A stretch of DNA of 19,651 nt from Planctomycetota bacterium (GCA_038213805.1 JBBQSO010000091.1:1-19651), one strand, 5' to 3'; counted from the stretch's first letter, positions 243 to 18,543 are shown. Numbers and translations are program-made. Notes: a model not told the origin generated them from the sequence alone.

Positions 243-2552
243 TCAGGAGAACCTGCCGGCGTCGATCCGCCCGGTTCGCGCGGACGTGGCCACGATCAGC
301 CCCCGTCCCCGGTAGCGGAGGAGGCACGACGTCGCCCCGCCGGTGGCGGTGATCTCGGCCCAGTCCAGGGCGCCATCCCGCCACGCCAGCGCGACCGTGA
401 AGCCGCCGCGCGCGCGCAGTCCGCGCACGCACCCCTGCGGCCACGCGGGCGGCAGGGCGGGCAGCAGGTCGAGGGCGTCGGCGTGGCTCTGCAGCAGCAT
501 CTCGGCGAGCGCGGCGGTGGCGCCGAAGTTGCCGTCGATCTGGAAGGGGGGGTGGTTGTCGAAGAGGTTTGGCAGGGTCGACTGCGCGAGCAGCAGGTCC
601 AGGTGCCGGGCGCACTGCGCGCCGTCGCCCAGGCGCGCGTAGAAGGCGATGATCCACGCGCGGCTCCAACCGGTGTGGCCGCCGCCGTGGGCGAGTCGGC
701 GGTCCAAGGTGGCGCGGGCCGCGGCGGCCAGCGCCGGGGCCCGCTGCGGGGTGAGCTCGTCCCCGGGAAACAGGCCCCACAGGTGCGAGATGTGGCGATG
801 GCCGGGCTCGTCCTCGTCGTGGTCCTCGCGCCACTCGCGGATCCCGCCGTGGCGATCCTGGCGCGTCGGCGGCAGGCGTGCGGCCAGCGCGGCGAGCTCA
901 TCGGCGAATGCCGCGTCGCAGTCCAGGAGCGCGGCCGCGGCGCGGCAGTTCGCGAACAGCGCGCGCAGGATCTGCGCGTCCATCGCCGGCCCCGCGCAGA
1001 GCTGGGCGCGCGCGCCGTCGCTGCCGCGCCAGGCGTTCTCGGGCGACACCACCGGCGCGGTGACCAGCTCGCCGGTGGCGGGATCCACGACCAGGAAGTC
1101 GCAGAAGAACAGCGCGGCGCCGCGCAGCACCGGCCACGCCCGGGCGAGGAAGGCGCGGTCGCCGCTGAAGCGGAAATGCTCCCACAGGTGCAGGCACAGC
1201 CATGCGCCCCCGGTCACCCACATGCCCGTGGCGCAGGAATCCACCGCGGCGGTGGCGCGCCACAGGTCGGTGTTGTGGTGCAGCACCCAGCCGCGGCAGC
1301 CGTAGTTGACCTGCGCGGTGCGCGTGCCGCTGACCATCAGCTCGTCGATCATCGCGAACAGCGGCGCGCCGAGCTCGGCGAGATTGCAGGTCTCGGCCGG
1401 CCAGTAGTTCATCTCGGTGTTGATATTGGTCGTCCACTTGCTGCCCCACGGCGGCACCAGGTTCGCGTTCCACAGGCCCTGCAAGGTCGCCGGTTGGCCA
1501 CCGGCGCGGCTGCAGGCGATCAGCAGGTAGCGCCCGAATGCGAAGTGCAGGGCCGCGAGCGCGGGGTCGGCAGCGCCCGCCGCAACCGCCGCGAGGCGCT
1601 CGTCGGTCGGCAGCGCGGGTGCCGGACCCAGGTCGAGCCGCACGCGCGCGAACAGCGCGCGGTGGTCGGCGAGGTGGGCTGCGCGCAGGTCTGCGAGGCT
1701 GCGCGTCCGCGCCGCCGCCAGGATCGCGGCGCAGCGTGCGTGCGGATCGCCGCTGATGTCCTGCCAATCGACGTGACTGGTCGCCAGGGCCAGGCGCAGG
1801 GTGACCTGCGACGCACCGACGACGCGTAGGCCGTCGGCGGTTTCCACGACCGTGCCGCCGACCGCCTCCATCGCCAACCGGCCGGCGAAGCGCAGGCCAG
1901 GTCCAGCCATGCCGCCGACCAGGTCGCGCTCCTGCCCGTCACCGTGCCACTGCCCGCTCAGTTCCAAGGTCCCGTCCGCCAGCGTCGTCGTGATCGCGTC
2001 GGGATGCGGACTGGTCAGGCGCGCGGTCATCGACATGCCGGTGGGATGGTCGCAGGCACAAGAAATCACGAGCACGCCATCCAGCGCGCTGGCGAAGACC
2101 TCGCGCGTGACGCTGGCTTCGCCGGTCCGCCACGTGCTGCGCGCGATCGCCTCGTCGAGGATCAGCTCGCGCCGGTAGCCAGTCTCTGGTCCAGTGTCCG
2201 CCAGGTCGATGAGGAGGTCTCCGAACGGTTGGTAGGCTTGCAGGAAACGCGGCCGGCAGAGCAGGTCCCGTTCGACCACGCCGGCAGCCGCGGCTATGTT
2301 GCCGGCGAAAAGCAGCGCGCGCGCCTCGTCTAATCCGGCGCGTGCCGTCGGCGACGTGTAATCGTGCGGCCGACCCGACCACAGCGTTCCTTCGTTGAGC
2401 TGGATGCGCTCTGCCGTGGTGCCGCCGAAGACCATCGCGCCGAGCCGGCCGTTGCCCACCGGCAGGGCCTCGTCCCAGGTCGCCGCGGGCCGGCGGTACC
2501 AGAGCATGCCCTGGCGTCCCGTTGCGGGAGTCGACGACGTTCCGGGATCCAT
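243..2552 (-). CDS. Glycoside hydrolase family 95 (alpha-1,2-L-fucosidase-like), probably cytoplasmic
   Basis: 769 aa with GH95 hallmark segments [56 protein letters not shown] and [10 protein letters not shown]. No obvious signal peptide. SD-like GAGGTGG upstream of the ATG. Confidence 0.93.
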
Positions 2553-2591
2553 GCATCCACCTCAGGTGCCGGCATGATGCCGGTCGGGTGA

Positions 2592-2618
2592 AGCGTAGCA
2601 TCGGCGCACCCCGCTCAA
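2592..2618 (-). promoter_or_regulatory. Candidate sigma70-type promoter for the GH95 gene (TTGAGC-N15-TACGCT, with extended -10 TG)
   Basis: Minus strand: TTGAGC (2618-2613), TGC then TACGCT (2597-2592), 40 nt upstream of the ATG. Confidence 0.45.
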
Positions 2619-2668
2619 CGGCAGGTCGTCCAGCGTGGTTGTGCGTCCAGTCCGCGCCACTGCTTGGC

Positions 2669-3319
2669 ATGGTGCGGCGTTCGCTGCGGCGTAGGGTGCG
2701 GCGCATGGCAGTCGTCCACGCGGTGTTGTCTCTGATAGCGGCGATCGCACTGGCCCTGCTCGGCCTGCCGTGGTGCTGGCTCCTGCTGGTGGATTCCTGG
2801 CGCCGCGCCGCAGCCGTGGATGACGGCATGCCGCTCGACCCGCTCGCGCTGTACTGCGGTGGTGGCTGCGCCCTGCTGCTCATGCTGTTCAAGCGCCCGA
2901 ACTGGTTCCTGCACACCGTCATCCATGAAACCGCCCACGCCCTGATGTGCGTGGTGCTGTTCGTGCCGGTGAGCGGCTTCCGTGCCACCCACGGCCACGG
3001 CGGTGAAATCGCGCACGGCCCCTGCGATCCGCTGCGCGGCACGCTCATCTCGATTGCGCCCTTTGTCCTGCCGCTGCTGCTCATCCCGCCGCTCGCCGCA
3101 GCGCCCTTCGTGCCCGGCGAGGGTCCCTGGCATCCGCTCTGTTCCGCCGTCGCGTCATTTGCCGCGCTGCAGCACCTGCAGGGTCTCTATCACAACGTGC
3201 GCCTCAACTTTTCGGGCGCCGGCTCAGACCTCGTCAAGGTCGGCCGGCCCTTGTCCCTGGTGCTCATCGCAGGCAGCCTGCTGCTGATCGCGACGTGGGT
3301 GCTGACGGTACTTTGGTAG
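2669..3319 (+). CDS. Membrane zinc metalloprotease, Peptidase M50B-like
   Basis: Several hydrophobic helices, HExxH in FLHTVIHETAHAL, downstream ISIAPF and a GSD motif before the last helix. Start is ATG 2669 or 2705; the ORF-track start at 2522 overlaps the GH95 start and is unlikely. Confidence 0.7.
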   Translation: MVRRSLRRRVRRMAVVHAVLSLIAAIALALLGLPWCWLLLVDSWRRAAAVDDGMPLDPLALYCGGGCALLLMLFKRPNWFLHTVIHETAHALMCVVLFVPVSGFRATHGHGGEIAHGPCDPLRGTLISIAPFVLPLLLIPPLAAAPFVPGEGPWHPLCSAVASFAALQHLQGLYHNVRLNFSGAGSDLVKVGRPLSLVLIAGSLLLIATWVLTVLW

Positions 3320-3436
3320 GGTCCGGAAGTCCGGAAGTCTCGGTGGAGGGAATGGCATCCGTTCGCGCGTGAGCGCCGGATAGACGTGGTCGTGCCGACT
3401 CGCGCGCCGTTCCGGGTTGAGCCGGACTTCCGGACC
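3320..3436. repeat. Intergenic element A1 with inverted (GTCCGGAA)n ends
   Basis: Left GGTCCGGAAGTCCGGAAGTCTC (3320-3341). Right CCGGACTTCCGGACC (3422-3436) is the exact reverse complement of 3320-3334. Lies between convergent genes. Confidence 0.8.
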
Positions 3437-3452
3437 GGGTGCGCCCCGCGCC

Positions 3453-6170
3453 CTAAAGCGTGAAATGGAACGCGGCCCCCGCGCCGGGCGCGCCCTCCGC
3501 CCAGACCTTGCCGGCGTGGCGGTGGATGATGCGGCCCACGGTGGCCAGGCCGATGCCGGTGCCTGGGAAGTCGCTCGTTGAATGCAGGCGCTGGAAGGCG
3601 CCGAAGAGCTTGCCGACGTAGGCCATGTCGAAGCCGGCGCCGTTGTCGCGCACGGTGAACACCGGACCGTCGGGGCCGTCGCTGGCGCTGAAGGTGATGC
3701 GCGCGTCGGGGCAGCGGGCGGTGAACTTCCAGGCGTTGCCGAGCAGGTTCGCGAGCGCGACGGTCAACAACCGCGCGTCGCCGCTGGCGGTCATGCCCGG
3801 CGCGATGGCAATCGCGACCACGCGCTGCGGCTCGTCACGACGCAGGATCGCGACCACCTCCTCGGCCAGGGCGCTGAGGTCGACCGGCGCACGCACCAGC
3901 TCGGCGCGGGTGATGCGGGCCAGCACCAGCAGATCGTCGATCAGCTCGGCCATACGCCGGGTGGCGCCGCGCACCCGTGCCAGGTAGTCGCGGGCCGTCG
4001 GCGCCCGGTCGGCGCCGTGGTCCTCGTCCAGGGCCTGGGTGAAGCCATCGATGGCGCGCAGCGGCGCGCGCAGATCGTGCGAGACCGAGTAGCTGAAGGC
4101 CTCGAGCTCGCGGTTGGCGACCTCAAGCATGGCCGTGCGCTCGACCACGCGCCGTTCGAGGTCGGCGGTGAGCAGGCCGAGCTCCTCGCCGGTCTGGTGG
4201 CGCTCGATGGCGATGCCGGTGAGGTGCAGCGCCAGCGAGATGATCTGCTGCTCGTCCGCATCGGGCTGGCGCAGCTCGCGCAGGTGGATGCACAGCACGC
4301 CGCCGATCTGCCCGCGCAGCGCCGTGATCGGAGCGCTCCAGCAGCACACCAGGCCGAGCGAGGCGGCGAGCGCGCGCGCACCCAGCCAGGGGGTGTCGGT
4401 GGCGAGCGTCCAGGAGCGCAGCCCGCCCGCGGTGCCGGGTTCCAGCAGCTCCGGCCCCGCCGCCGCCGCCGCGGACTCGAGCGCCGCCAGCCATTCCGCG
4501 GGCAGCGCCGAGGCCGCGGCCGCGGTCAGCCGGCCGCCGCGTGGCGCGCGGCGCAGCAGCGCCACCGCGAGATGCGGGAAGCGCCGCTCGATGAAGCTGC
4601 ACACCAGTTCGAAGGTGTTGGGCAGTGGATGGCCGCGCACGATCATCTCGAGCAGCGCGGACTCCCAGCCCTGTCGCTCCGCCTCGCGCCGGCTGTCGCT
4701 GACGTCGGTGGTCGCGCCGACCCACTCGTGCACCTGCCCGCCGACCAGGATCGGCACGGCGCGCGCCAGGCAGTGCCGCCACTCACCGTCGGCGCGGCGC
4801 ACGCGGTGCTCGACGCGGAAGGGTGCGCGCGTGCGCACCGCCTCCTTCCACACCGCGAGGGTGGCGGCGCGGTCGTCGGGGTGGATGGCCTCCATCCAGC
4901 CACTGCCGGCAGCCTCGGCGCGGCTCTGCCCGGTGAGCGCGATCCACGCCGCCGGGTCGCCACTCGATCGACCGACCGGGTCGGTGGTCCACACCGCCAG
5001 GGCGCTGGCCGAGACCAGCGAACGGAAGCGCAACTCGCTGGCGCGCAGTTCAAGCTCTGCCTGCTTCGCCTCGGTGATGTCCTGCACCACGCCGAGCATG
5101 CGCAGTGGCCGGCCCTCGGCGTCGCGCATCAGCAGGGCGCGGCTCGCCACCCAGCGGGTGGTGGCGGAAGCGGCCCAGCAGGTGCGGAACTCCGCGGCGT
5201 AGCGGCCGTCGCCGGCGATCGCCGCCTGCCGGCTGCGGTCGATGCTGGGCAGATCGTCCGGGTGTGGGACGGTACTGAACACATCGCGCGGGACATCGCG
5301 GTCCGCGTCGCCCAGGCCGAACATGGTCGCGGTGCGGGCTGAAATGCGCCCTTTATCGTTGGCGACATCGACCTCCCACATGCCGAGCTCGGCGATGTCG
5401 ATGGCCAGCGTCAGGCGCGCCTGGCTCTCGCGCAGGGCGGCCTCGGCCTGGCGGCTCGTGGCGATGCGTTCCTCAAGTTCGGCGGTGCGATCCGCGACCT
5501 GCCGCTCGACCGCGCGGAAGTCGCGCTGCGCCTGTTCTTCCTGGCGCGTGCGCAGCGTAAGGAAGCGGTTCATCAGCAGGTGGTTGAGCAGCGCGAGCAG
5601 GAACAGCGCGAGCACCAGACCGATCATCATCGCGAATGTCGTGCGCGTCAGTGCCGCGTCGCGGGCGACGTGCTGCGCGAGGGCGTGCTGCTCGTGCGCC
5701 TTCAGTTCAACGATGCCGCTGCGCAGACGTTCCTCGGCGCCGTCCGCGCCGGACCTGGCCAGCAGGCGCGCCGCCTGCGCATCGTCTGCGCCCAGCAGTG
5801 CGCGCACCTGGTGGTGGTGCGCCGCGAGCGCGTCCATGGCAGCCGCGACGTGCTGCACCGTGGCGGCCTGCTCGGGCACGTCTGCGGTGAGGTCCTCGAG
5901 CGCCACCAGCTGCTGCGTCGCAGTGCCGGCCGATCCGGCCGGTGCGGTCTGGCCGAGCAGGTCGCCGCGCAGCAGGACCTCGTCCGCTGCGAGCGCCGCG
6001 GCCAGGCCGTCGGTGGCCGAGATCACCTGCCAGGCGTGCTCGATCAGGCGAGAGGATTCCTGCGAGGCGAACATCAGCCGGGCTGACATCGCGGCCACTG
6101 CACCCAGGCCGAGCGCGGCCAGCAGCACGCTGAGACGTCTGAAGCGGATCATCGCGGCCTGGGTGAACAT
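3453..6170 (-). CDS. Membrane sensor histidine kinase (TM, CHASE3-like periplasmic region, TM, 2x PAS/PAC, GAF-like, HisKA, HATPase_c)
   Basis: H-box ELEAFSYSVSHDLRAPLR, N-box NLLGNAWKF, G1 DNGAGFD, F-box LFGAFQRLH, G2 GTGIGL. Two PAS repeats with HPDD. Two hydrophobic segments near the N-terminus. Exact start uncertain (6170 or the MIRFRR ATG). Confidence 0.92.
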   Translation of the reverse strand: MFTQAAMIRFRRLSVLLAALGLGAVAAMSARLMFASQESSRLIEHAWQVISATDGLAAALAADEVLLRGDLLGQTAPAGSAGTATQQLVALEDLTADVPEQAATVQHVAAAMDALAAHHHQVRALLGADDAQAARLLARSGADGAEERLRSGIVELKAHEQHALAQHVARDAALTRTTFAMMIGLVLALFLLALLNHLLMNRFLTLRTRQEEQAQRDFRAVERQVADRTAELEERIATSRQAEAALRESQARLTLAIDIAELGMWEVDVANDKGRISARTATMFGLGDADRDVPRDVFSTVPHPDDLPSIDRSRQAAIAGDGRYAAEFRTCWAASATTRWVASRALLMRDAEGRPLRMLGVVQDITEAKQAELELRASELRFRSLVSASALAVWTTDPVGRSSGDPAAWIALTGQSRAEAAGSGWMEAIHPDDRAATLAVWKEAVRTRAPFRVEHRVRRADGEWRHCLARAVPILVGGQVHEWVGATTDVSDSRREAERQGWESALLEMIVRGHPLPNTFELVCSFIERRFPHLAVALLRRAPRGGRLTAAAASALPAEWLAALESAAAAAGPELLEPGTAGGLRSWTLATDTPWLGARALAASLGLVCCWSAPITALRGQIGGVLCIHLRELRQPDADEQQIISLALHLTGIAIERHQTGEELGLLTADLERRVVERTAMLEVANRELEAFSYSVSHDLRAPLRAIDGFTQALDEDHGADRAPTARDYLARVRGATRRMAELIDDLLVLARITRAELVRAPVDLSALAEEVVAILRRDEPQRVVAIAIAPGMTASGDARLLTVALANLLGNAWKFTARCPDARITFSASDGPDGPVFTVRDNGAGFDMAYVGKLFGAFQRLHSTSDFPGTGIGLATVGRIIHRHAGKVWAEGAPGAGAAFHFTL

Positions 6171-6500
6171 ATGCCTCCGCGACCGTCCTAGGGGCGGCGT
6201 GATGGACCCGCCAACCCAGTCTTATGAGTCAGTCTCGGACCGGGCTGGCCCAGACAAGACGTGTGCCGACACCCTTGGCCGCCAAGGGGATGTACCAACG
6301 CGTCACCCCCAATCCCGATTCCTGGCACTGCCAGTGCTTGCGGGTCGAGTCCTCCCCGCTCTAATGCTTCATCCCCTGCAGACGGGTAGATCGCGCGACG
6401 CGGTCCCGGTCGCAGGCCATGGCCCTGGTAAGGGCCGCTCACATGTAGTGCGCTCAGCCGCCTACGCCAATCGAGCCACTTGGCTCAGGATTTGTCTCAC

Positions 6501-9500
6501 ATGACGGACCACCCCGATCTCGCCTCGTTGACCATCAAGGACCTGCGGCAGCTCGCAGGCGAACACCACATCCAGAACCGCAGCAAACTCGGCAAGGAGG
6601 ACCTTGTCCTCGCGCTGCAGAATGCGCTCGCCGGCCTGGGCAGCCGCCTGGCCGCCGCGGCTGCCGCCAGCGGTGGTGGCGAAACCACTGTTGAAAGCGC
6701 CGCTCCGGTCCAGGTCAGCGCGGCTGAGCCGGTCGCCGCCGCGCCCGCGCCCGCGTCCGCCGCCGAACCCGAGGTCCTCACGCTGGGTGGCGATCTCGCC
6801 CCCGCCGCCGAGCCGGAAGTGCTTGATGCCGCGGCCGTCGCCGACCTCGCAAGCCCTGCGCCCGATGCCGGCCCGCGCCCGCTCGGCCCCGATGGCCAGC
6901 CGCTCGGCGACGGTGAACGTCGTGGCCGTCGCCGTCGCCGTCGCCGCGGCCGTGGACGCGGCCGCCGCGATGGTGATGGCTTCGCGCCCGATGGCGCCCC
7001 GGGCGCCCCGGGCGAGCAGGGCCACGATCAGGACGAGGATGGTGAAGGCGAAGGCGAAGACGGCGATGACCAGGGCCAGGGCGAAGCTGCCGCGCCCGTC
7101 GCGCCTGCCGCCGTCGCGCCCGCTGCCGCCAGTCAGCCGATCGCCAAGGCCGGCGATGACCAGCGCCCCGCTGCGCCCCGTCCGCCCGTTGCCGGTCGTG
7201 GCGATGGCCGCGATGGCCAGCGCGAGCCGCGCGGTGACCGTTCGCCCCGCGATGATCGTGAACCTCGTGGCGACCGCGAACCGCGCGGCGATCGCGAACC
7301 CCGTGATCAGCGCGAACCCCGTGGGGATCGCGAGCCTCGTGACCAGCGCGAACCCCGCGGCGACCGCGATCTACGCGGCGACCGCGAGCCTCGTCAGGGC
7401 GACCGCGACCCGCGCGGCCAGAACCAGGGCCCGGAGACCCGTGCGCCCCGCCCGCGCCTTGATGGCCAGGTGCGCTCGGTGCCGAGCGTCCTCGACCGCC
7501 TGTGTGTCTTCACCCGCGGCATCCTCGAACTCTGCGACCCCGCGACCCCGAGCTGGGCGCAGGCACGCCTTTCCGAGCTGCTTGCCGAGGCCGGACTGGT
7601 CGGCATGCCCGCCAACGGCGTGCCCCACCCGGACTTCCACCAGGTGGTGGGCACCGCCCTGGCCAAGGACCTGCCCGCTGGGCACATCGCCGTGATCGAG
7701 GCCCCCGGCTTCGCCCTGCGCGGCGACCGCGGCGACCTCTTCCCGCTGCGCAAGGCCCAGGTGCGTGTCGCTGGCAGCGAGCGTCGCGATCAGGCCCCCG
7801 GCGAGCGTCCCGCCTTCCAGCCGGTCGCCGAGCGCCCGGCCGCTGTCCCGGTGAGCGCCGCCGCTCCTGCCCCCGCTCCTGCCGCCACTCCCGCGGCCGA
7901 GCCGGTCGAGATCGGCCTCGCTGACATCGCCGCGGTGCCCGCGCTGGTCGCGACCACGCCGACTGCAGATGCTCCCGGCCTGCGCCAGGATCCCGACGCG
8001 CCCCGTCAGGATGACGAGCGTGGCGGTCGTCCGCCCCAGGGCGAGCGCAGCCGCCACGGCCGCGACCGCAATGACGGCCGTCGCGATGGCCGCGGCGGTG
8101 AGCGCCGTGATGGCCGCGAACCTCGCGACGGTCGTGAGCCCCGCGATGCCCAGCGCCCGCGTGGTGACGCCCAGGAGCGCGCTCCCGAGCGTGCCCCGGA
8201 AGGCGACGCCCCGGTCCAGCCGGTGGAGCGCAGCGAGGCCCCCGCGCCGCATCCCGAGCAGGGCCGCCCGCCGCACTACCCGCACGCGCCCGAGCCTGCC
8301 GGCGACGCCCCGACCCTGCCGCTCGCGCCGCAGGTCCCGGAAGTGCTCGCCGCCCGCCCCAAAGCGGAAGGCTTCCGCGCCCTTGGCCTGAACGAGCAGA
8401 TCCTCGCGGATCTCGCCGGCATCGGCTATCAGCAGCCCTCGCCGATCCAGTCCGAGGCCATCCCGCACGTGCTCGCCGGCCGCGACGTCCTGGGTCAGGC
8501 CCAGACCGGCACCGGCAAGACCGCGGCCTTCGCCCTGCCCATGCTCCAGCGCCTCTACGAGCTCGAGCCGCGCGAGGGCAAGCCCGCGATGCTGGTGCTG
8601 TGCCCGACGCGCGAACTCGCGCGCCAGGTCGCCGGCGAATTCACGCGCATGGCCGGCGCCAGCGGTGCGCGCGCCGCGGTGATCTACGGCGGCGTGTCGA
8701 TGGACGACCAGGTCCGCGCCCTCGACCGCCACCCGCACGTGGTGATCGGCACCCCCGGCCGCATCATCGACCACATGCGTCGCCACACCCTCGACCTCTC
8801 GCGCCTGGCCATGGCGGTGCTGGACGATGCCGACCAGATGCTCGACATCGGCTTCTGGCCCGACGTCAACTACATCATCGGGCACACCCCGCCCGAGCGG
8901 CAGATGCTGCTGTTCTCAGCCACCTTCCCCGACGAGGTGAAGCAGATGGCCGAGAAGCATATGAAGAACCCCGTGCATGTGCGCATCGCGCCCAAGCAGG
9001 TGACCGTCGAGCAGGTCGACCAGAAATTCATCGCCGTGCCGCGCGAGCGGAAGAACGAGCTGCTGGCGCACTTCATCGAGACCCAGAATCCGCCCCAGCT
9101 GGTGGTGTTCTGCCGCACCAAGCACCAGACCGACCGCGTCGCCGAGGTGCTCAAGCGCAAGAACATGTCTGCCGGCGCCATCCACGGCGACCTGCCCCAG
9201 ACCAAGCGCGAGAAGATGCTCCAGCAGTTCCGCGCCGGCGAGCTGCAGTGCCTGGTCGCGACCAACGTCGCGGCGCGCGGTCTGGACATCCCGACGGTCT
9301 CCCACGTGGTCAACTACGACATCCCCGAGATGCCGGAAGAGTACGTGCATCGCATCGGCCGCACCGCGCGCAACGGCGCACGCGGCGTGGCGCGCACCTT
9401 CATCACCCCCGATGACGGCCAGTTCCTGCTCGAGATCGAGAAGCACATCGGCATGGAGCTCGAGGAGGAGAAGGTCGAGGGCTTCACGCTCGCGCCCGAG

Positions 9501-9599
9501 GTGGAGATCAAGCGTACCATCGCCGACATGCCGGTCGGCACCCCGCGCATGCTCAAGCCGCTGGTCGGCGGCATCCGCCTCGGGCGCCGTCGCCGCTGA
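6501..9599 (+). CDS. DEAD-box family RNA helicase (motif II = DDAD) with ~620 aa N-terminal extension (Rho-N-like, Arg-rich/low-complexity, GrpE-like)
   Basis: Q motif GFRALGL...GYQQPSPIQ, I AQTGTGKT, Ia PTRELARQ, Ib TPGRI, II DDAD, III SAT, IV VVFCRTK, V ATNVAARGLDI, VI HRIGRTAR. ATG 6501 is preceded by AGGA (6487-6490). Confidence 0.92.
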   Translation: MTDHPDLASLTIKDLRQLAGEHHIQNRSKLGKEDLVLALQNALAGLGSRLAAAAAASGGGETTVESAAPVQVSAAEPVAAAPAPASAAEPEVLTLGGDLAPAAEPEVLDAAAVADLASPAPDAGPRPLGPDGQPLGDGERRGRRRRRRRGRGRGRRDGDGFAPDGAPGAPGEQGHDQDEDGEGEGEDGDDQGQGEAAAPVAPAAVAPAAASQPIAKAGDDQRPAAPRPPVAGRGDGRDGQREPRGDRSPRDDREPRGDREPRGDREPRDQREPRGDREPRDQREPRGDRDLRGDREPRQGDRDPRGQNQGPETRAPRPRLDGQVRSVPSVLDRLCVFTRGILELCDPATPSWAQARLSELLAEAGLVGMPANGVPHPDFHQVVGTALAKDLPAGHIAVIEAPGFALRGDRGDLFPLRKAQVRVAGSERRDQAPGERPAFQPVAERPAAVPVSAAAPAPAPAATPAAEPVEIGLADIAAVPALVATTPTADAPGLRQDPDAPRQDDERGGRPPQGERSRHGRDRNDGRRDGRGGERRDGREPRDGREPRDAQRPRGDAQERAPERAPEGDAPVQPVERSEAPAPHPEQGRPPHYPHAPEPAGDAPTLPLAPQVPEVLAARPKAEGFRALGLNEQILADLAGIGYQQPSPIQSEAIPHVLAGRDVLGQAQTGTGKTAAFALPMLQRLYELEPREGKPAMLVLCPTRELARQVAGEFTRMAGASGARAAVIYGGVSMDDQVRALDRHPHVVIGTPGRIIDHMRRHTLDLSRLAMAVLDDADQMLDIGFWPDVNYIIGHTPPERQMLLFSATFPDEVKQMAEKHMKNPVHVRIAPKQVTVEQVDQKFIAVPRERKNELLAHFIETQNPPQLVVFCRTKHQTDRVAEVLKRKNMSAGAIHGDLPQTKREKMLQQFRAGELQCLVATNVAARGLDIPTVSHVVNYDIPEMPEEYVHRIGRTARNGARGVARTFITPDDGQFLLEIEKHIGMELEEEKVEGFTLAPEVEIKRTIADMPVGTPRMLKPLVGGIRLGRRRR
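7221..7415 (+). repeat. Coding 18-bp degenerate tandem repeat (REPRGD/REPRDQ hexapeptides) in the helicase N-terminal extension
   Basis: Translation REPRGDRSPRDDREPRGDREPRGDREPRDQREPRGDREPRDQREPRGDRDLRGDREPRQGDRDPR, with synonymous variation between units. Confidence 0.85.
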
Positions 9600-9606
9600 G
9601 GACGCC

Positions 9607-10497
9607 ATGCCCACCACCATGCGCCACTTCCTGCTGTCCCTGGCGCTGCTCACGGCGCTGCTGGCCAGCGGCTGCCGGGCCGCGAGCCGCGACACCGGCC
9701 GCCCGGCGCCGCCACCCGTCGACCATGCGGTGGTGGCTGGCGAGACCATCAGCCAGGTTGCGGAGGCCTACGGCGTGACGGTGGCCGCCATCGTCAAGGC
9801 CAACGGTCTGCGCAGCCGCAGCCTGCACGCGGGGCAGCGCCTGGTCATCCCTGGCGGACACGCGCCGGAGCCGGTGGCTCCCGCCGCGCCGGAACCCGTG
9901 GTCGCGGCCCCGGTCCAGCCCGCAGCCCCGGCCACTGATTGGTATGTCCCCCGCACCGCCTGGGCCCAGCGCGCGATCATCCTGTCGCGAACCAAGCCGA
10001 TGGGCGGCGTTCCGACGCGCATCACCGTTCATCACAGTGGCGACGTCGGCGACGCGGCGATGGCGCCGCGCCGCTGGCTGAACGAGGTCGACGACCAGCA
10101 CATGCGCGGCGTCGGCAAGGCCGAGCCCTGGGCATGCATCGGCTACCACTTCATCATCAGCGCCGACGGCCAGGTCTTCGAGGGCCGACCGCTGCCCTAC
10201 CAGGGCGCGCACGCTGGCTGGGACGAGGTCAACCGCCTGAACATCGGCATCTGCATGGTCGGCAACTTCGACGTCAGCCAGGTGCCCGGCGCGCAGCGCG
10301 AGGCGCTGCTCGCCGTGCTCGACCGCCTGTGCGAGGACTACCACATCGCGCGCAGCCAGGTCTTCGGCCACAATCACTTCAAGAGCACCGATTGCCCGGG
10401 CCGCCACCTCGTCCCGGTGATTGAGGCGTTTGCGCATCACGCGTCAGCGGCCTCGCCCAACCACGCGCTCGCCACCGTCCTGCCCGCGCAGCCCTGA
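9607..10497 (+). CDS. Lipoprotein with LysM domain and N-acetylmuramoyl-L-alanine amidase (Amidase_2/PGRP-like) domain
   Basis: Lipobox-like LLASGC. LysM HAVVAGETISQVAEAYGVTVAAIVKANGL...AGQRLVIP. Pro/Ala linker. Amidase motifs ITVHHS, IGYHF, GAHA, IGICMVGNF, GHNHF..TDCPG. GAGGA SD overlaps the helicase stop. Confidence 0.9.
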   Translation: MPTTMRHFLLSLALLTALLASGCRAASRDTGRPAPPPVDHAVVAGETISQVAEAYGVTVAAIVKANGLRSRSLHAGQRLVIPGGHAPEPVAPAAPEPVVAAPVQPAAPATDWYVPRTAWAQRAIILSRTKPMGGVPTRITVHHSGDVGDAAMAPRRWLNEVDDQHMRGVGKAEPWACIGYHFIISADGQVFEGRPLPYQGAHAGWDEVNRLNIGICMVGNFDVSQVPGAQREALLAVLDRLCEDYHIARSQVFGHNHFKSTDCPGRHLVPVIEAFAHHASAASPNHALATVLPAQP

Positions 10498-10658: not shown

Positions 10659-10742
10659 GCATGGGTGGCGGAATTGGCAGACGCACTAGCTTGAGGTGCT
10701 AGCGAGGTAACTCTCGTAGGGGTTCGAGTCCCCTCCCGTGCA
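10659..10742 (+). tRNA. tRNA-Leu (anticodon GAG), CCA not encoded
   Basis: Acceptor GCATGGG/CCCGTGC plus discriminator A, D-arm TGGCGGAATTGGCAGACGC, anticodon stem CTAGC-TTGAGGT-GCTAG, long variable arm CGAG-GTAACT-CTCG, T-arm GGGGTTCGAGTCCCC. Followed by CTA. Confidence 0.96.
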
Positions 10743-10751
10743 CTAGATCAG

Positions 10752-11992: not shown

Positions 11993-12541
11993 TCAGCCAA
12001 GCTTCTTGTCGCCAGCGGCCGGACAGGCCGGGAGTACCGGCTCAGCCATCGCATTGCGGCTCCGCCCCGGTCCCCAGCCGAACAGCGCCTGGAACAGCGG
12101 CATCAGCGGATGATCCGCGACGCAGGCCAGGAAATAGAGCTCGTGCTCTTTCTCGACCCGCGCCATCTCAAGGATGCAGGGCTGCTCGTCCGCGAGCGCG
12201 GTGCCGCGCGTCAGCTCGATCAGCAGCAGGTACTCGTTGACGTTGCCGCTCTCCAGGCGGCCGGCGAAGTACATGGGGATGAAGCGGCCAAGCACGTGGC
12301 ACGACAGCGAAATCACCCGACCGATGCAGGCGTACTGCCATTCGTGCCAGCGCGATGGCGCCACGCCGCGGCGGGTGAGCAGGCGTGCGATGCTGGCGCG
12401 GTGCGCCCACTCCTCGCGCTCGATGCGGGCGATATGCGCACGCTCGGCAGGATCGCGCACCGAGGCCGCGTGGCCCTGATACGCGAAGGCGGCGGCGCGT
12501 TCCGCGCTGTGAGCGAGGCGCAGCAGCTCGTCCAGGGTCAT
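11993..12541 (-). CDS. Ferritin-like diiron-carboxylate protein (rubrerythrin/COQ7-like fold)
   Basis: Pattern E...ExxH...E...ExxH: HSAERAAAFAY, EREEWAH, RLESGNVNEY, VEKEHE. GGAGG SD upstream of ATG 12541. Confidence 0.8.
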   Translation of the reverse strand: MTLDELLRLAHSAERAAAFAYQGHAASVRDPAERAHIARIEREEWAHRASIARLLTRRGVAPSRWHEWQYACIGRVISLSCHVLGRFIPMYFAGRLESGNVNEYLLLIELTRGTALADEQPCILEMARVEKEHELYFLACVADHPLMPLFQALFGWGPGRSRNAMAEPVLPACPAAGDKKLG

Positions 12542-12853
12542 GGGTGGCCTCCGCAGGGTTTGCGAGCTCACATTCGGTGGTGCTGGGGGTGACCTGTGCA
12601 CGTGTGCCGTGGAGCATGCGCAGCGCTGGCGCCTAGCATCGCCACGCCGTGGTCTCCGCCAAGCTCGGCTGGGAGGAATGCCTGCTGCATGCACCGCCGG
12701 CATGCCCTCCAGACTCGGCTGACGGTGGCAGGGCGATCCGCGACAAACAATCAGCGGCGGCAGCTGGGGTCGACTCGCGGGGCGGATCGCGCTGCCACGC
12801 CAGTCATGGGACCTGTCGGTCAGAGGGCTGCGCGAGCCATGAGATCAGCCCAC

Positions 12854-12888
12854 AAAAAACCCCGTAAGATTTTACTCTTACGGGGTTT
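12854..12888 (-). terminator. Intrinsic terminator after tRNA-Glu
   Basis: 13-bp perfect stem AAACCCCGTAAGA (12857-12869) / TCTTACGGGGTTT (12876-12888), 6-nt loop, with a U-tract on the minus strand (A6 at 12854-12859 on plus). Confidence 0.85.
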
Positions 12889-12892
12889 ATAT

Positions 12893-12968
12893 TGGTACTC
12901 CCGAGGGGAGTCGAACCCCTGTTCACTGGCTGAGAACCAGTTGTCCTGGGCCACTAGACGACGGGAGC
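12893..12968 (-). tRNA. tRNA-Glu (anticodon CTC), CCA encoded
   Basis: Reverse complement GCTCCCGTCGTCTAGTGGCCCAGGACAACTGGTTCTCAGCCAGTGAACAGGGGTTCGACTCCCCTCGGGAGTACCA, 76 nt. Anticodon stem ACTGG-TTCTCAG-CCAGT. Confidence 0.96.
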
Positions 12969-12995
12969 CCGTGTTCTGATCAGGACAGGGTGCGG

Positions 12996-13022
12996 ATCCT
13001 GCGGGGTAATCGATTTTGTCAA
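12996..13022 (-). promoter_or_regulatory. Candidate promoter of tRNA-Glu (TTGACA-N15-CAGGAT)
   Basis: Perfect TTGACA (13022-13017) overlapping the antiporter stop codon. Weak -10 at 13001-12996, followed by a GC-rich stretch. Confidence 0.4.
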
Positions 13023-14656
13023 CGTATCGTCGCCCGGGCCTTGCTGCCCGAAGTTGTCCCGATCGCCCCGCGGCGGCCCAGGGCCAGGTCGAGCATGGGC
13101 AGCAGCGCGCGGCTGGTCTCGCGCTCGTCGCAGATCACGAACTGCGCGCCGGCGCTGGTCAGCAGATCGATCTGCGCTTCGTAGGGACTGCGCGCGATGA
13201 TCATCAGGGCGGGGTCGAGGCTGCGCAGACGGCGGGTGACCAGGGCCGAGGCGTCGGCGATCGGGAAGGTCAGCACCACCAGGCTGGGACGGTGGCCGAT
13301 CACCGGCAGCCAGTCTTCCATGTCCTCGATGCGGCCCTTGTGGCAGCGCACGCCGGGGGCATCGCTCCAGGTCTTGAGCAGACGTTCGTTGCGATCGACC
13401 AGCAGCAGCGGGTGGCCCTGCGAACGCAAAGTCTCGACCACCGTGTTGCCGACCGGGCCAAGGCCGGCGACGACGATGGTCGCGCCGGGCGTGGTGAACT
13501 GGTCGAGGCTGGTACGCGGTAGGAAGGGCAGCGCGAGGCGCATCAGCAGCGGCGTGAGCGCGAGGCTGACGCAGGTGACCGCGACCACCAGCTGGTAGAG
13601 GTGCGCGACCTGCGGGTCGGCGATGCCGCCCAGCGCGCCGGCGGCGAGCACGAAGCTGAACTCGCCGATCGGCGCCAGCGCCAAGCCGTAGCCGATCGCC
13701 GGCCTGGCCGCCATGCCGGTCAGGCGCAGGGCGAGGGCGGCGATCGGGGCCTTCAGTACCAGCGCGGCGAGCACGCCGGCGGCGACCTCACCGGGATGCG
13801 CGGCGACGAAGCCCGGGTCGAACAGGGTGCCCATGGCGACGAAGAACAGGATTGCGGTCAGGCCCTGCAGGGGGCGCACGCTCGACTCGACGGTGTGGCG
13901 ATTCTCCTCGCCGCCGAAGGCCAGGCCGGCACAGAACGCGCCGGCGGCGCCGCCCATGCCACAGGCCTCGGCGAGAGTCGCGGCGCCGAGCGCGACGGTG
14001 ACCGCGAAGGCGACCTCAAGCTCGGGCAGCTGCGCGCCGCGGATGCGCCGGAACACCAGTGACGCCATCGCATAGCGCATGCCGATGGTGAGCGCGACCG
14101 CGGCCACCAGGCCGCAGCCGACCAGCCACGGCGGGTGCTGTGCGGCGCCCGGCAACAGCAGGGCGAGCAACACCATGAATGGACCGAGCGCGATGTCCTG
14201 CATCAGGCTCATGCTCAGCGCGAGCTGGGCCTCGTCGCGGTTGCGCAGCTTCCGTTCATCGAGAGTGCGCAGCATCATCACGGTCGAAGTCATGGTCAGG
14301 CAGGCGCCGACCGCCACCGCCTGCGCAAGCGGCAGGCCGATGAGCATGGCCACAGCGGTGCCGGCGCCCAGGGTCAGGCCGATCTGCGCGCCCGAGGCGA
14401 TCAGCACCTGGCGCAGGTGGCGGCGCAGATCGGAGAGGTCGAGCTCGAGACCGAGCGCGAACAGCAGCATCGCCGCGCCGATGCTGGCGAGGTGGTCGAG
14501 CACTTCGCCGCCGACGACGCCGAAGGCGTGCGGACCGAGCGCCGCGCCGGTCGCCAGGTAGGCGATCAGCGCGCTGACGCCCAGGCGCTGGAACACCAGC
14601 ACCGCCGGCAGCCCGACCGCGAACAGCACCAGCACGGCTTCGAGCCCGGTGAACAT
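13019..14656 (-). CDS. Monovalent cation:proton antiporter-2 (CPA2; KefB/KefC/YbaL-like) with C-terminal TrkA-N/RCK domain
   Basis: Many TM helices with family-like segments LFALGLELD, MTSTVMM, MQDI, LFFVAMG, IGEFSFVL. C-terminal Rossmann-like IVVAGLGPVG...LLLVDRN and IIARS. Confidence 0.9.
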   Translation of the reverse strand: MFTGLEAVLVLFAVGLPAVLVFQRLGVSALIAYLATGAALGPHAFGVVGGEVLDHLASIGAAMLLFALGLELDLSDLRRHLRQVLIASGAQIGLTLGAGTAVAMLIGLPLAQAVAVGACLTMTSTVMMLRTLDERKLRNRDEAQLALSMSLMQDIALGPFMVLLALLLPGAAQHPPWLVGCGLVAAVALTIGMRYAMASLVFRRIRGAQLPELEVAFAVTVALGAATLAEACGMGGAAGAFCAGLAFGGEENRHTVESSVRPLQGLTAILFFVAMGTLFDPGFVAAHPGEVAAGVLAALVLKAPIAALALRLTGMAARPAIGYGLALAPIGEFSFVLAAGALGGIADPQVAHLYQLVVAVTCVSLALTPLLMRLALPFLPRTSLDQFTTPGATIVVAGLGPVGNTVVETLRSQGHPLLLVDRNERLLKTWSDAPGVRCHKGRIEDMEDWLPVIGHRPSLVVLTFPIADASALVTRRLRSLDPALMIIARSPYEAQIDLLTSAGAQFVICDERETSRALLPMLDLALGRRGAIGTTSGSKARATIR

Positions 14657-14768
14657 GACCTGGGGTGTAGGTCGGGGATGCGGGATGGCAAATGGGTTGA
14701 AAGGGATGTGCTACGGGTTGCCCGGCTGCCCTCCTGGTCCGCTGGAGCGGGACTGCTACGGTGCAGCC

Positions 14769-15614
14769 ATGACGCTGCCGACCCTGATGTCCCTGCTCAC
14801 GCGCAGCGCGGAGTTCCTGCTGTCCAAGGGCATCAGCAACGGCCGGCGCGAGGCCGAGTGGATCTTCGCCGAAAGCCTGGAGCTGACGCGGCTCGACCTG
14901 TACACGCGCTTCGACATGCCACTGGAGGACGACCAGGTCGCGCGCCTGCGGGGGCTGGTGACACGGCGCGGCAAACGTGAGCCGCTCGCCTACGTGCTCG
15001 GCACCCAGGAATTCCACGGGCTGCGCCTGCGGGTCGGGCCCGGCGTGCTGGTGCCGCGGCCAGAGACCGAGGAGCTGGTCGACCACGTCGTGAAGGCGCT
15101 GCCGACCACGGCGGTGCGCGTGCTCGATATTGGCACCGGCTCCGGTGCGATCGCCCTGGCCGTGAAGCGGGCGCGGGGCGATTGCACGGTCGAGGCGGTC
15201 GACGTCAGCGCCGAGGCCCTGACCATTGCGCGCGCCAACGCTGCGACCCTGGAGCTCGAGGTCGCCTTCCGCCAGGCGCACCTCAGCACGGGCGCGGTCG
15301 GCCCGTATGCCGCGGTGGTCGCCAACCTGCCTTACATCGGCAGCGACGAGCGCGGCGATTGCGATCCCGAGCTGGCCTTCGAGCCGGCCCAGGCGCTGTT
15401 CTCTGGTCAGGACGGCCTGCCCCTGATCGCCGAGCTGATCGCCGCCGCGCCCCCGCTGCTCGGTCCGGGCGGCCTGCTGTGGCTTGAACACGGCTGGAAG
15501 CAGGGGGCCGCGATCATGGCGCTGTGCGCGCCCTTGCGGCTGGACTGCGCCATAATCCCCGACCTCGCCGGCCGCGAGCGTTTCGCGCGCATCAGCGTGA
15601 GCGCCGCGCCATGA
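14769..15614 (+). CDS. prmC: Release factor glutamine N5-methyltransferase (PrmC/HemK)
   Basis: RRGKREPLAYVLG, VLVPRPETEELV, SAM-binding LDIGTGSGAIAL, NLPY (NPPY-type), FEP..AL..G.DGL, LEHG, DLAGRER. Confidence 0.93.
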   Translation: MTLPTLMSLLTRSAEFLLSKGISNGRREAEWIFAESLELTRLDLYTRFDMPLEDDQVARLRGLVTRRGKREPLAYVLGTQEFHGLRLRVGPGVLVPRPETEELVDHVVKALPTTAVRVLDIGTGSGAIALAVKRARGDCTVEAVDVSAEALTIARANAATLELEVAFRQAHLSTGAVGPYAAVVANLPYIGSDERGDCDPELAFEPAQALFSGQDGLPLIAELIAAAPPLLGPGGLLWLEHGWKQGAAIMALCAPLRLDCAIIPDLAGRERFARISVSAAP

Positions 15615-15916
15615 CCCCCGCCACTGCGCAGGCCGTTGCCGCGTGCCTGGTGCTCGCCGCCCTCGCCGCCAGCGCCGCGCTGCGTCCGGTGCGCAGCGCG
15701 GCGCCCCCCGCCCCGCTCGCCTGCGCCAGCGCCGAACCATGGATGGCCGACTGCCTGCCAGGCGTCGGAGCCAAGACCCGCGAGCGCGCCGCCGCCGCCC
15801 TGCGCGCAGGAAGGATCGCCGCGCTGCCGGCGCGCGCCCAGGCCACCGCGCGCGACTGGTTCTGGGAGAAGGGTCCGGAAGTCCGGAAGTCCGGAGGTCC
15901 GGAAGTCTCCCGGTGA
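15611..15916 (+). CDS. Small membrane-anchored/exported helix-hairpin-helix protein (ComEA-like, minimal)
   Basis: ATGA overlap with the prmC stop, N-terminal hydrophobic helix, HhH-like CLPGVGAKTRERA. Upstream of the prepilin peptidase gene. Confidence 0.55.
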   Translation: MTPATAQAVAACLVLAALAASAALRPVRSAAPPAPLACASAEPWMADCLPGVGAKTRERAAAALRAGRIAALPARAQATARDWFWEKGPEVRKSGGPEVSR

Positions 15917-16045
15917 TGACGGCGAATCCGGGCCAGAACGTGTGCCGGAGCTGCGTGGAAATTGGTGGCCACCCAGTGGGCCGCTCGCGAAACTTTGCGG
16001 ATTCGCAATAGACCCACCTCACACGAGACTTCCGGACTTCCGGAC
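15872..16045. repeat. Intergenic element A2 with inverted (GTCCGGAA)n ends
   Basis: Left: four octamers (one GTCCGGAG variant) 15873-15904 plus GTCTC. Right: GAGAC(TTCCGGAC)2 at 16025-16045, whose reverse complement is identical to A1 positions 3321-3341 (21/21). Confidence 0.85.
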
Positions 16046-16093
16046 TGCTCCCCCATTGCCCCCCACCATCCCGTCGCGACAACCACTCTCAGC

Positions 16094-17254
16094 ATGATCC
16101 TCGGCATCGGCCTGCTGCTCGGCGCGTTTATCGGCTCGTTCCTGAACGTGTGCATCCACCGCATGCCACGTAACGAGAGCATCGTCATGCCGCCGAGCCG
16201 CTGCTACAGCTGCGGCACCCAGGTTCAGTGGTATGACAATCTGCCCGTGCTCGGCTGGGTGATCCTCGCCGGGCGCTGCCGCTGGTGCGGGGCGCCGTTC
16301 AGTCCGCGCTATCTGATCATGGAACTGCTGGTTGCCGCGCTCACCGCGCTGGTGCTGGTGTGGAGCTTCCAGCCCGGACTCCATGTCGCGCCCTGGTTGG
16401 CGGTGCTGGGCGTGCCGCTCGCGGTCGGACACGCGGTGTTCGCGGCGGCGCTGCTGATGCTGGTCTACGTGCTGTTCGTCTCGTCGGTGATCGACATCGA
16501 CCACATGCTCATCCCGGATGAGCTCACCAAGGGCTTCCAGGTGCTGGCGCCGGCGGTCGCGGTCGGGGTCGCCACCCAGTTCGCCTACGACGACCTGTGG
16601 TCGCCCGCCGCCTGGCTGTGGCACGACAGCGCCCTGGGCGGGCGTATCTACACCCCGGGCATGTTCCTGACGCGTATGCTCGGCGGCGGCGCGGCGCTCG
16701 CGGCCGCGCTGCTTTTGTCACTGCCGCTGGCGCGCGCCATCTACGGGCGTTGGCTGCCTGCCGCCATGCGTTGGACGGACGAGGACCACCGCGGCTTCGC
16801 CGCCGGCGTGAAATGGTTCACCGGGGTCATGGCCGCCTACCTCGCCCTGCTCGCCATCCTGGTGCTGTGGCAGCCGGGCGGGGCGGCCGGCTGGTGGGCA
16901 GATCTTGCTGCGCACCTCGCCCGAGCCCTGGCTGGAGCCGCCACCGGCTGGGTGGTGCCCTACACGGTCGGCCTGCTCGGCACGGTGGCCTTCCGGCGCA
17001 ACGCCATGGGCTACGGCGACGTCAAGTTCCTCGCCCCGATCGGGGCCTTCCTCGGTCCGGCCGGGGTGCTCTACGCATTCTTTGCCGCCGCCGTGGTCGG
17101 CTCGGTGGTGGGCCTGCCGCTGCGCCTGCTCAAACAGCGCATCGAGATTCCCTTCGGACCGTATCTGGCCGCGGGTGCGCTGGTGGTGGTGTTTTTCGGA
17201 ACACCAGTGCATGGCCTGGTGTTCGGAGCGTTGTTGCGGCCGCATGGGGGATGA
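16094..17254 (+). CDS. pilD: Type IV prepilin peptidase / N-methyltransferase (A24A)
   Basis: GSFLNVCIHRMP, two CxxC (SRCYSCG, GRCRWCG), WYDNLPVLGW, first catalytic Asp region VIDIDHMLIPD, second MGYGDVKF, C-terminal IPFGPYL. Confidence 0.9.
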   Translation: MILGIGLLLGAFIGSFLNVCIHRMPRNESIVMPPSRCYSCGTQVQWYDNLPVLGWVILAGRCRWCGAPFSPRYLIMELLVAALTALVLVWSFQPGLHVAPWLAVLGVPLAVGHAVFAAALLMLVYVLFVSSVIDIDHMLIPDELTKGFQVLAPAVAVGVATQFAYDDLWSPAAWLWHDSALGGRIYTPGMFLTRMLGGGAALAAALLLSLPLARAIYGRWLPAAMRWTDEDHRGFAAGVKWFTGVMAAYLALLAILVLWQPGGAAGWWADLAAHLARALAGAATGWVVPYTVGLLGTVAFRRNAMGYGDVKFLAPIGAFLGPAGVLYAFFAAAVVGSVVGLPLRLLKQRIEIPFGPYLAAGALVVVFFGTPVHGLVFGALLRPHGG

Positions 17255-17261
17255 GGGTGCG

Positions 17262-17470
17262 GGCTGATGGCTGATGGCTGATGGCTGATGGCTGATGGCT
17301 GATGGCTGATGGCCCCTGCTCGCGGAGTTTCAGCCGTCTGAAAGCGGTTGGCTGTCCTGCGGAGCGGCCGGGCCGGCGCGAAGCGCCGCCTTGCCGGGCC
17401 GCCACCCTCCAGCCATCAGCCATCAGCCGTCCGCCGTCCGCCATCAGCCATCAGCCATCAGCCGCCAGCC
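17262..17470. repeat. Intergenic element B1: (GGCTGAT)7 ... GCGAAGC hairpin ... (ATCAGCC)~8
   Basis: Seven perfect GGCTGAT units at 17262-17310. Inverted array at 17410-17470 (five perfect ATCAGCC, two GTCCGCC, one GCCAGCC). Internal CGGCGCGAAGCGCCG at 17374-17388. Confidence 0.9.
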
Positions 17471-17485
17471 CTTCCACATGGCCAC

Positions 17486-17512
17486 TCGACAACCGTTCGC
17501 GCCACCTATAGT
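17486..17512 (+). promoter_or_regulatory. Candidate promoter of argB-argF (TCGACA-N15-TATAGT)
   Basis: TCGACA 17486-17491 and TATAGT 17507-17512. The -10 context CCTATAGTCCCCGCCT closely matches the tRNA-Leu promoter CCTAAAGTCCCGCCT. Confidence 0.6.
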
Positions 17513-17558
17513 CCCCGCCTTGCTCGCGGCATCATCCAGCCGCGAAGGAGTTGCACGA

Positions 17559-18434
17559 GTGGTCGACGAGGCGACGCGCAAGGCCAAGGTGCTGATCGAA
17601 GCCCTGCCCTTCCTGAAGCGGTTCCACCACCAGTTCACGGTGGTCAAGCTGGGCGGTGCGCCCATTGAGGATCCCGCGGTCCTCGATTCGCTGCTCACCG
17701 ACCTGGTGTGGCTCGAGCAGGTCGGCGTGCGTCCGATCCTGGTTCACGGTGGCGGCGCCTCTATCTCGCGCGCCATGGAGCAGGCCGGCCTCAAGCCGGT
17801 GTTCCACAACGGCCGCCGGGTCACCGACAAGGACACCATCGCCATCGTCGAGCGCGAGGTCGAGCGCCTCAACGAGCACATCCACGACCGCATCTTCGAC
17901 CTCGGCGGTGCGGCCATCCAGCTCTGCCCGCCGCACCTCATCGTCCAGGGCAAGGTGCTCGACCCGGCGCTGGGTTTCGTCGGCCAGCCGATCGGCGTCG
18001 ACCGCGAACGCCTGGTGCGCTACGCCACGCGCGGTCTGATCCCGGTCATCCCGCCGCTGTCGGTCACCGCCGACGGCCAGGTGCTCAACACCAACGCCGA
18101 CGATATCGCCCTGGCGGTCGCGACCAGTCTGGCCGCCGAGAAGCTGGTGTTCTGCAGCAACGTCCCCGGAGTCATGACCGATCCCAAGGATCCGCGCACG
18201 CGCATTTCCAGCCTCACCGACCGCGAGGTGCGCGCACTGGTCGCCAAGGGCGTGATCCAGGGCGGCATGATCCCGAAGATGGAGAGCTGCCTCGGCGCTC
18301 TCGAGGCCGGGGTGCGCAAGATCCACATCGTCGACGCCGGCATGCCGCACGCGCTGCTGCTGGAGATCTTCACCGCCGAGGGCATCGGTACCGAACTGCG
18401 CCTCGACGGCACCAAGGCGCTGCGCGCCGAATGA
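17559..18434 (+). CDS. argB: Acetylglutamate kinase
   Basis: VLIEALPFLKRF, VVKLGG, LVHGGG, GRRVTD, LGFVG, LNTNADDIA, GGMIPK, HALLLEIFT..GIGT. GTG start at 17559 with AAGGAG SD at 17545-17550. Confidence 0.95.
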   Translation: MVDEATRKAKVLIEALPFLKRFHHQFTVVKLGGAPIEDPAVLDSLLTDLVWLEQVGVRPILVHGGGASISRAMEQAGLKPVFHNGRRVTDKDTIAIVEREVERLNEHIHDRIFDLGGAAIQLCPPHLIVQGKVLDPALGFVGQPIGVDRERLVRYATRGLIPVIPPLSVTADGQVLNTNADDIALAVATSLAAEKLVFCSNVPGVMTDPKDPRTRISSLTDREVRALVAKGVIQGGMIPKMESCLGALEAGVRKIHIVDAGMPHALLLEIFTAEGIGTELRLDGTKALRAE

Positions 18435-18543
18435 CCACCCTGCCCACCGTTCGCGGTGGCCGCCCGATCCCCGGCGGCCCCATCCCCACCACCACCTGAA
18501 GCCAGCGGCCGGGCTCCTTGCGGAGTCGCGCGTCGCCACCGTC

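Follow-up and report, generated by a model that had tools for sequence, protein, structure and literature searches.

A segment homologous to the C-terminal half of the co-chaperone GrpE was found inside a DEAD-box RNA helicase encoded on a stretch of 19,651 nucleotides (nt) from a Planctomycetota bacterium (GCA_038213805.1, JBBQSO010000091.1:1-19651; this whole stretch is named here as the window). The segment at 7470-7775 of the plus strand translates to 102 residues in frame with the 1039-amino acid (aa) open reading frame (ORF) at 6480-9599, and Pfam and translation together gave the domain order as Rho_N, disordered tract, GrpE-like module, disordered tract and DEAD-box core. The first-pass annotation of this DNA had described a divergent GrpE head domain embedded in the helicase, and had proposed that a profile search, a predicted fold and conservation in orthologues be used to check it. 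The GrpE identity was borne out by all three, as detailed below, whereas the extent was understated because the module also includes the two short helices of the GrpE four-helix bundle. Each of the two domains is familiar; the novelty lies in the GrpE-helicase architecture and the truncated form of GrpE within it. To our knowledge, the GrpE described so far is a separate protein that serves DnaK as a general exchange factor.

Homology of the helicase module with GrpE

The relatives of the module were collected by a search limited to protein residues 325-440, which returned 57 proteins of 624-1087 aa, all of them DEAD-box helicases. The window module and 23 of these relatives picked for diversity were aligned (alignment A1, 24 sequences). 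Pfam GrpE (PF01025) was matched by all 24 sequences with a best expectation value (E) of 4.3e-7, and every other family was matched by one sequence at most. When A1 was compared using hhalign with an alignment of six true GrpEs, a probability of 99.0% and E of 2.9e-18 were obtained over 67 columns, in which module residues 30-101 were paired with the C-terminus of GrpE. The four matches that had been named at the outset (LLAEAGL, HPDFHQVV, GHIAVIEAPGFAL and LRKAQVRV) are all located in columns paired with the GrpE consensus, and the peptide quoted with them is present in the 7470-7775 translation between two low-complexity tracts, which show 27-30% identity compared with 69% in the module.

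A search of 1.84 billion representative proteins with the A1 profile (E up to 1e-3) gave 26 matches, comprising 14 family members, 7 true GrpEs and 5 multi-stretch matches to unrelated repetitive proteins, which were rejected as spurious. Thirteen of the family members matched at E <1e-10, and the remaining one (P0068) is a fragment containing Rho_N and the first 30 module residues. The 7 GrpEs were confirmed by Pfam (E 1e-17 to 5e-44), and true GrpEs were the only credible out-group of the module profile in this protein set. Furthermore, the module was aligned by BLASTP with P0067, a full-length GrpE of 223 aa that is the closest true GrpE to it, at 34% identity over 100 residues (E 1e-11), and this alignment begins at module residue 13, in the first helix. 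P0067 may mark the donor lineage; a homology search with it returned 39 GrpEs, few of them organism-named, and none of these names was planctomycete. In the ESM Atlas, the module fell near unnamed clusters, with GrpE (0.89) as the nearest one bearing a name; this was taken as a lead only.

The occurrence of the fusion was monitored by a genome scan using one genome per GTDB species. It was present in 38 loci from 36 metagenome-assembled genomes (MAGs), of which 36 loci carry a planctomycete-type label and two are labelled only as 'bacterium'; none of the 38 comes from a cultured isolate. In the closest MAG, the module is covered by two contig ends, with 96% identity. Module and helicase were found in one ORF in 38/38 loci, as far as the contigs extend. 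A free-standing module was not found in the protein library, where short matches (82-126 aa) begin in the middle of the module and look like fragments. In the reciprocal direction, a hidden Markov model (HMM) made from the six GrpEs recovered the helicase ORF in 36 of the 38 loci, and in the two loci that it missed, a contig end leaves just the module's first half.

Some results at the level of single sequences and of PDB sequences weigh against the assignment. The isolated window segment scored 19.3 bits with PF01025 (E 1e-3, profile positions 99-164 of 165) and the whole protein 13.6 bits, both under the Pfam gathering score of 25.8; the sub-threshold match is located at protein residues 362-431. 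NCBIfam gave no match to the isolated segment, and phmmer of the single segment against PDB sequences returned no GrpE. The A1 profile was also weak against PDB sequences, where its top ranks were E. coli GrpE (1dkg, E 0.23) and Thermus GrpE (3a6m, E 0.72). Such scores under the curated cut-off and non-significant PDB searches would be expected if the resemblance had arisen by chance or composition, or if the segment were an inert relic left by an ancient fusion of genes. This explanation is very improbable, as the hhalign result, the reciprocal HMM searches that agree with it and the Foldseek matches confined to GrpE (see below) all argue against chance, and the conservation of the module argues against a relic. 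Together, these findings showed homology between the module and the GrpE C-terminal half.

Gene architecture and conservation of the module

The features of the helicase gene, with the evidence for each, are as follows.

6480-9599, plus strand: whole gene, a 1039-aa DEAD-box RNA helicase with a long N-terminal extension (ORF list, translation, Pfam).
6516-6632, plus strand: Rho_N (SAP-like) domain, residues 13-51 (Pfam PF07498, 25.7 bits against a cut-off of 24.9).
6654-7469, plus strand: disordered tract 1, residues 59-330, rich in Ala/Pro/Gly/Arg/Asp/Glu (translation; 29.6% of residues common to relatives).
7470-7775, plus strand: GrpE-like module, residues 331-432, homologous to the GrpE C-terminal half (Pfam, Foldseek, hhalign, BLASTP, profile searches).
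7488-7589, plus strand: two short helices, module residues 7-21 and 28-40 (AlphaFold2 secondary structure, BLASTP with P0067, conservation).
7596-7772, plus strand: beta-wing of six strands, module residues 43-101, the portion with which GrpE enters the nucleotide cleft of DnaK (confidence of 83-93 by block in the AlphaFold2 model, hhalign pairing).
7719-7742, plus strand: invariant hairpin R-G-D-R-G-D-L-F (alignment of 24, column conservation in 58).
7776-8366, plus strand: disordered tract 2, residues 433-629 (translation; 27.4% of residues common to relatives).
8439-9377, plus strand: helicase core, DEAD at residues 654-822 and Helicase_C at 858-966 (Pfam).
9510-9596, plus strand: basic conserved C-terminal tail, residues 1011-1039 (75.9% of residues shared with 57/58 relatives).

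For each segment, conservation was measured as the percentage of its residues in the window protein that were identical in 58 relatives. The share was 76.4% in the helicase core, 75.9% in the C-terminal tail, 68.6% in the module and 49% in Rho_N, and it came down to 29.6% in tract 1 and 27.4% in tract 2. The module is conserved about as well as the catalytic core, is under selection and is joined to the DEAD-box core through a flexible linker. Because its conservation is near that of the core while both linkers have drifted, an inert relic was excluded. Within the module, column conservation in 58 sequences was 1.0 at the hairpin tip, and 0.77, 0.87 and 0.88 in the first helix, the inter-helix loop and the second helix, respectively.

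The ORF opens at TTG, and the relatives begin at a Met equivalent to the ATG at 6501 (codon 8); the true start is therefore probably this ATG, with the first seven codons not translated. Tandem Repeats Finder detected an 18-nt tandem repeat of ~9.5 copies at 7245-7418 within tract 1. It codes for REPRGD-type units, and these linker units just upstream of the module resemble its invariant RGDRGD hairpin tip. The C-terminal tail matches the catalytic core in conservation and finishes with several consecutive Arg residues; it may be RNA-binding or partner-binding. Overlapping ORFs in other frames were rejected as a product of the ~72% G+C content, none of them being backed by conservation.

Predicted fold and the parts of GrpE retained

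The module was modelled with AlphaFold2 using A1, and the model had a mean predicted local distance difference test (pLDDT) score of 80.1 and a predicted template modelling (TM) score of 0.60. It contained helices at residues 7-21 and 28-40 followed by six strands, which are the two short bundle helices and the beta-sheet wing of the GrpE fold. By 10-residue block, the pLDDT was 60-67 for residues 1-30, 74 for residues 31-40 and 83-93 from residue 41 onward. When the model was searched against PDB with Foldseek, the first 11 listed matches were all GrpE chains (E 1.7e-5 to 5.3e-2, query-normalised TM 0.49-0.58), nine of the matches being at E <=1e-3, and the next listed match had E of 0.46 and probability of 0.05. 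The GrpE chains matched come from Thermus, E. coli, human mitochondria, Geobacillus and M. tuberculosis.

Alignments chained from the module through P0067 to 1dkg placed module residue 7 at about residue 95 and residue 100 at residue 192 of E. coli GrpE, and in the same chain the two helices map to residues ~95-136. They are joined by a near-invariant loop, C-D-P-x-T-P, and by these alignments the helix pair corresponds to the GrpE helices that build the four-helix bundle in the dimer. The module has thus kept both the two short bundle helices and the beta-wing, the same two short helices and six-stranded wing that are seen in GrpE (PF01025; 1DKG, 3A6M, 4ANI, 8GB3 and human GrpEL1 9BLS/9BLT). 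The P-x-x-H, G-F/Y and L-R-x-A-x-V-x-V positions are also conserved in both. In contrast, GrpE is a free protein of ~200 aa with an N-tail and a stalk, and the module lies inside a 1039-aa helicase without either; its bundle helices are shorter, and its hairpin, with the invariant RGDRGD tip, is five residues longer. The RGDRGDLF hairpin was invariant in 24/24 aligned sequences.

Possible role of the module in DnaK recruitment

We infer, with a probability of about 45%, that the module is a dimerising and DnaK-docking adaptor within the helicase. The first-pass annotation had already suggested that the segment could dimerise the helicase or recruit DnaK. The helix hairpins of two helicase chains would pair as a four-helix bundle and produce a helicase dimer, and one beta-wing with its invariant RGDRGDLF hairpin would dock on lobes IB and IIB of the DnaK nucleotide-binding domain (NBD). 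Hsp70 would in this way be held at the helicase and its RNA-protein substrates, for example, ribosome-assembly intermediates or condensates made by the disordered tracts. The module might open the nucleotide cleft of DnaK locally and, as it has neither stalk nor N-tail, would not be expected to link nucleotide exchange with the release of substrate in the manner of full GrpE. This logic would be closer to that of a eukaryotic BAG-domain adaptor than to that of a general GrpE.

The retained parts are those to which DnaK contacts have been assigned. The hairpin tip, the second helix and the inter-helix loop are the best conserved elements of the module, in keeping with a binding surface. The available portion of one review describes the beta-domain as carrying most of the GrpE-DnaK interactions and wedging the nucleotide cleft open (PMC4753570). 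In M. tuberculosis, the major DnaK-GrpE contact is formed by the proximal beta-domain and the two short helices with NBD lobes IB/IIB, according to an excerpt of PMC10803776, and a passage of PMC10825016 indicates that E. coli GrpE cut to residues 69-197 gives the same nuclear magnetic resonance signature on the DnaK NBD. A complex prediction for two module copies (A1) with residues 1-385 of DNAK_RHOBA, a Swiss-Prot stand-in for the NBD, scored 0.00 and gave no verdict either way. The module is near neutral (median isoelectric point 6.3, net charge -1, n=58), and an RNA-binding role was set aside as this charge is unlike that of a basic RNA-binding domain.

Several features of the module and its surroundings speak against a dimerising, DnaK-docking adaptor. 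The long stalk helix is absent and the disordered N-tail is also missing, and the upstream region, where GrpE has both, is a Pro/Arg/Asp/Glu-rich repeat tract; in the excerpt of PMC10803776, the long helix of M. tuberculosis GrpE is essential for refolding and forms regions II and III of the contact. The two helices are shorter than those of GrpE and were modelled at low confidence (pLDDT 60-67), a value that in a monomer model says nothing on dimerisation, and BLASTP left a 10-residue gap in the second-helix region relative to P0067. The Asp of the GrpE Phe-Asp-Pro motif is a near-invariant His in the module, the conserved Asp of the first GrpE bundle helix is variable, and the terminal hairpin, five residues longer than usual, has a comparable length only in P0067 (1/45 GrpEs). 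When the M. tuberculosis contact positions were transferred to the module by hand, Pro144 corresponded to module Pro54, and Ala/Ser at module position 78 took the place of Arg169, a residue salt-bridged to DnaK. However, E. coli GrpE has Gln at the position equivalent to Arg169; therefore, side-chain contacts are poorly conserved even between true GrpEs, and sequence alone cannot decide DnaK binding. In addition, dnaK, dnaJ and grpE were not found beside the gene in the window and the 38 loci by HMM and Hsp70-signature scan, and the gene neighbourhood therefore lends no support.

Other bacterial DEAD-box helicases dimerise through accessory domains, which would agree with a GrpE-derived module co-opted purely to dimerise or oligomerise the helicase, its DnaK binding having been lost. 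The strong conservation of the bundle helices and their loop (0.77-0.88), the replacement of several GrpE-typical residues and the loss of the stalk helix and N-tail, which full GrpE needs to function as far as the excerpt of PMC10803776 goes, all fit this explanation. It is nevertheless unlikely, as the beta-wing plays no part in GrpE dimerisation, yet it is the most confidently modelled part of the module, and a pure dimeriser has no need for a wing whose hairpin tip is invariant in 58/58 sequences.

The wing could also have acquired a new partner, with DnaK uninvolved, such as the RecA-like core of the same protein (autoregulation), a ribonuclease, a ribosomal protein or the RGD-rich repeats of the linker. 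The invariant lengthened RGDRGDLF hairpin and the His in place of Asp, which are not seen in typical GrpEs, would be accounted for in this way, as would the likeness of the PRGD-type repeats of the upstream linker to the hairpin tip. We consider this rather improbable, since DnaK is the ancestral partner of the fold, the true GrpE P0067 has a similarly long hairpin, and the gene neighbourhood points to no such partner, its only recurrent member being a LysM-amidase gene (18/38 loci).

The preferred reading of the module as a dimerising, DnaK-docking adaptor may be carried further, and this with considerable doubt, to a bacterial counterpart of the BAG type, in which a stalk-less mini-GrpE would dimerise the helicase, recruit DnaK and perhaps exchange nucleotide locally, so that Hsp70 could act on ribosome-assembly intermediates or condensates. 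BAG proteins, as presented in the available portion of PMC4753570, use nucleotide exchange factor domains to recruit Hsp70 to specific purposes and are the modular, task-specific exchange factors described for eukaryotes. The logic proposed here would be the same, namely, a small NBD-binding domain in a multidomain protein that brings Hsp70 to a task. The BAG domain, however, is eukaryotic and has an unrelated three-helix-bundle fold, and its likeness to the module would be a functional analogy only.

Known systems and implications

The first-pass annotation knew of no described GrpE-DEAD-box fusion. Literature searches on GrpE with RNA or DEAD-box helicases and on planctomycete DEAD-box helicases with disorder agree, as no such fusion was found by them, but precomputed Pfam annotation already carries PF01025 alongside DEAD on 3/57 relatives (precomputed Rho_N is present on 28/57). 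The nearest precedent found is All4144 of Anabaena PCC 7120, which in the accessible part of a preprint is a GrpE with an extra helix-turn-helix that works as a dimeric exchange factor and also binds DNA (bioRxiv 10.1101/2025.04.14.648684). Like the window protein, it joins GrpE to a nucleic-acid-binding part. As described there, however, All4144 is a complete GrpE that gained a small helix-turn-helix, whereas the window protein has only the C-terminal half of GrpE, internal to an RNA helicase.

If true, the conserved half-GrpE would provide a physical link between Hsp70 and RNA remodelling in bacteria and a testable handle on the role of DnaK in ribosome biogenesis. Such a role is reportedly indicated by the titles of papers by El Hage and Alix, and by these titles only. 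The module could serve as a natural minimal GrpE construct showing which functions require the stalk, and if some of the MAGs have no separate grpE, the helicase-borne module might be their sole exchange factor. If DnaK binding has been lost, it would be a clean case of a co-chaperone fold co-opted elsewhere.

The helicase core and its motif II

The helicase core was recognised by Pfam as DEAD (E 2.2e-49) and Helicase_C (E 4.5e-35), and motifs I (AQTGTGKT), III (SAT) and VI (HRIGRTAR) are all present. NCBIfam models of the CshA, DbpA and RhlE type matched it at E 1e-109 to 1e-136, all under the equivalog cut-offs. The core thus matches that of bacterial helicases of these types, but those families do not have the N-terminal extension of ~630 residues that bears Rho_N and the GrpE-like module in the window protein.

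Motif II of the window protein reads D-D-A-D (GAC GAT GCC GAC, nt 8823-8834) where DEAD-box helicases read D-E-A-D. DEAD was found in 57/59 proteins examined, the other two being the window protein and the partial P0040, from which no motif was obtained. It was also found in 33/33 loci that reach motif II, including the closest MAG, which has GAG at that codon. The DDAD reflects either a genuine replacement of the catalytic Glu or an assembly error at a single base.

Neighbouring genes

The helicase gene is followed by a gene at 9412-10497 for a LysM and N-acetylmuramoyl-L-alanine amidase protein. A homologue of the LysM-amidase gene was present in 18/38 loci, in 17 of them downstream on the same strand, and it was the only recurrent neighbour; the order of helicase and LysM-amidase genes is a conserved synteny. 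The flanking genes (243-6170 and 11993-19491) include no chaperone genes and encode a GH95 glycosidase, a PAS/GAF histidine kinase, a COQ7-like protein, a Na+/H+ exchanger with TrkA_N, PrmC, a prepilin peptidase, an amino-acid kinase and an ornithine/aspartate carbamoyltransferase. Two transfer RNA genes, tRNA-Leu(GAG) at 10659-10743 on the plus strand and tRNA-Glu(CTC) at 12893-12968 on the minus strand, were both confirmed by ARAGORN and Rfam.

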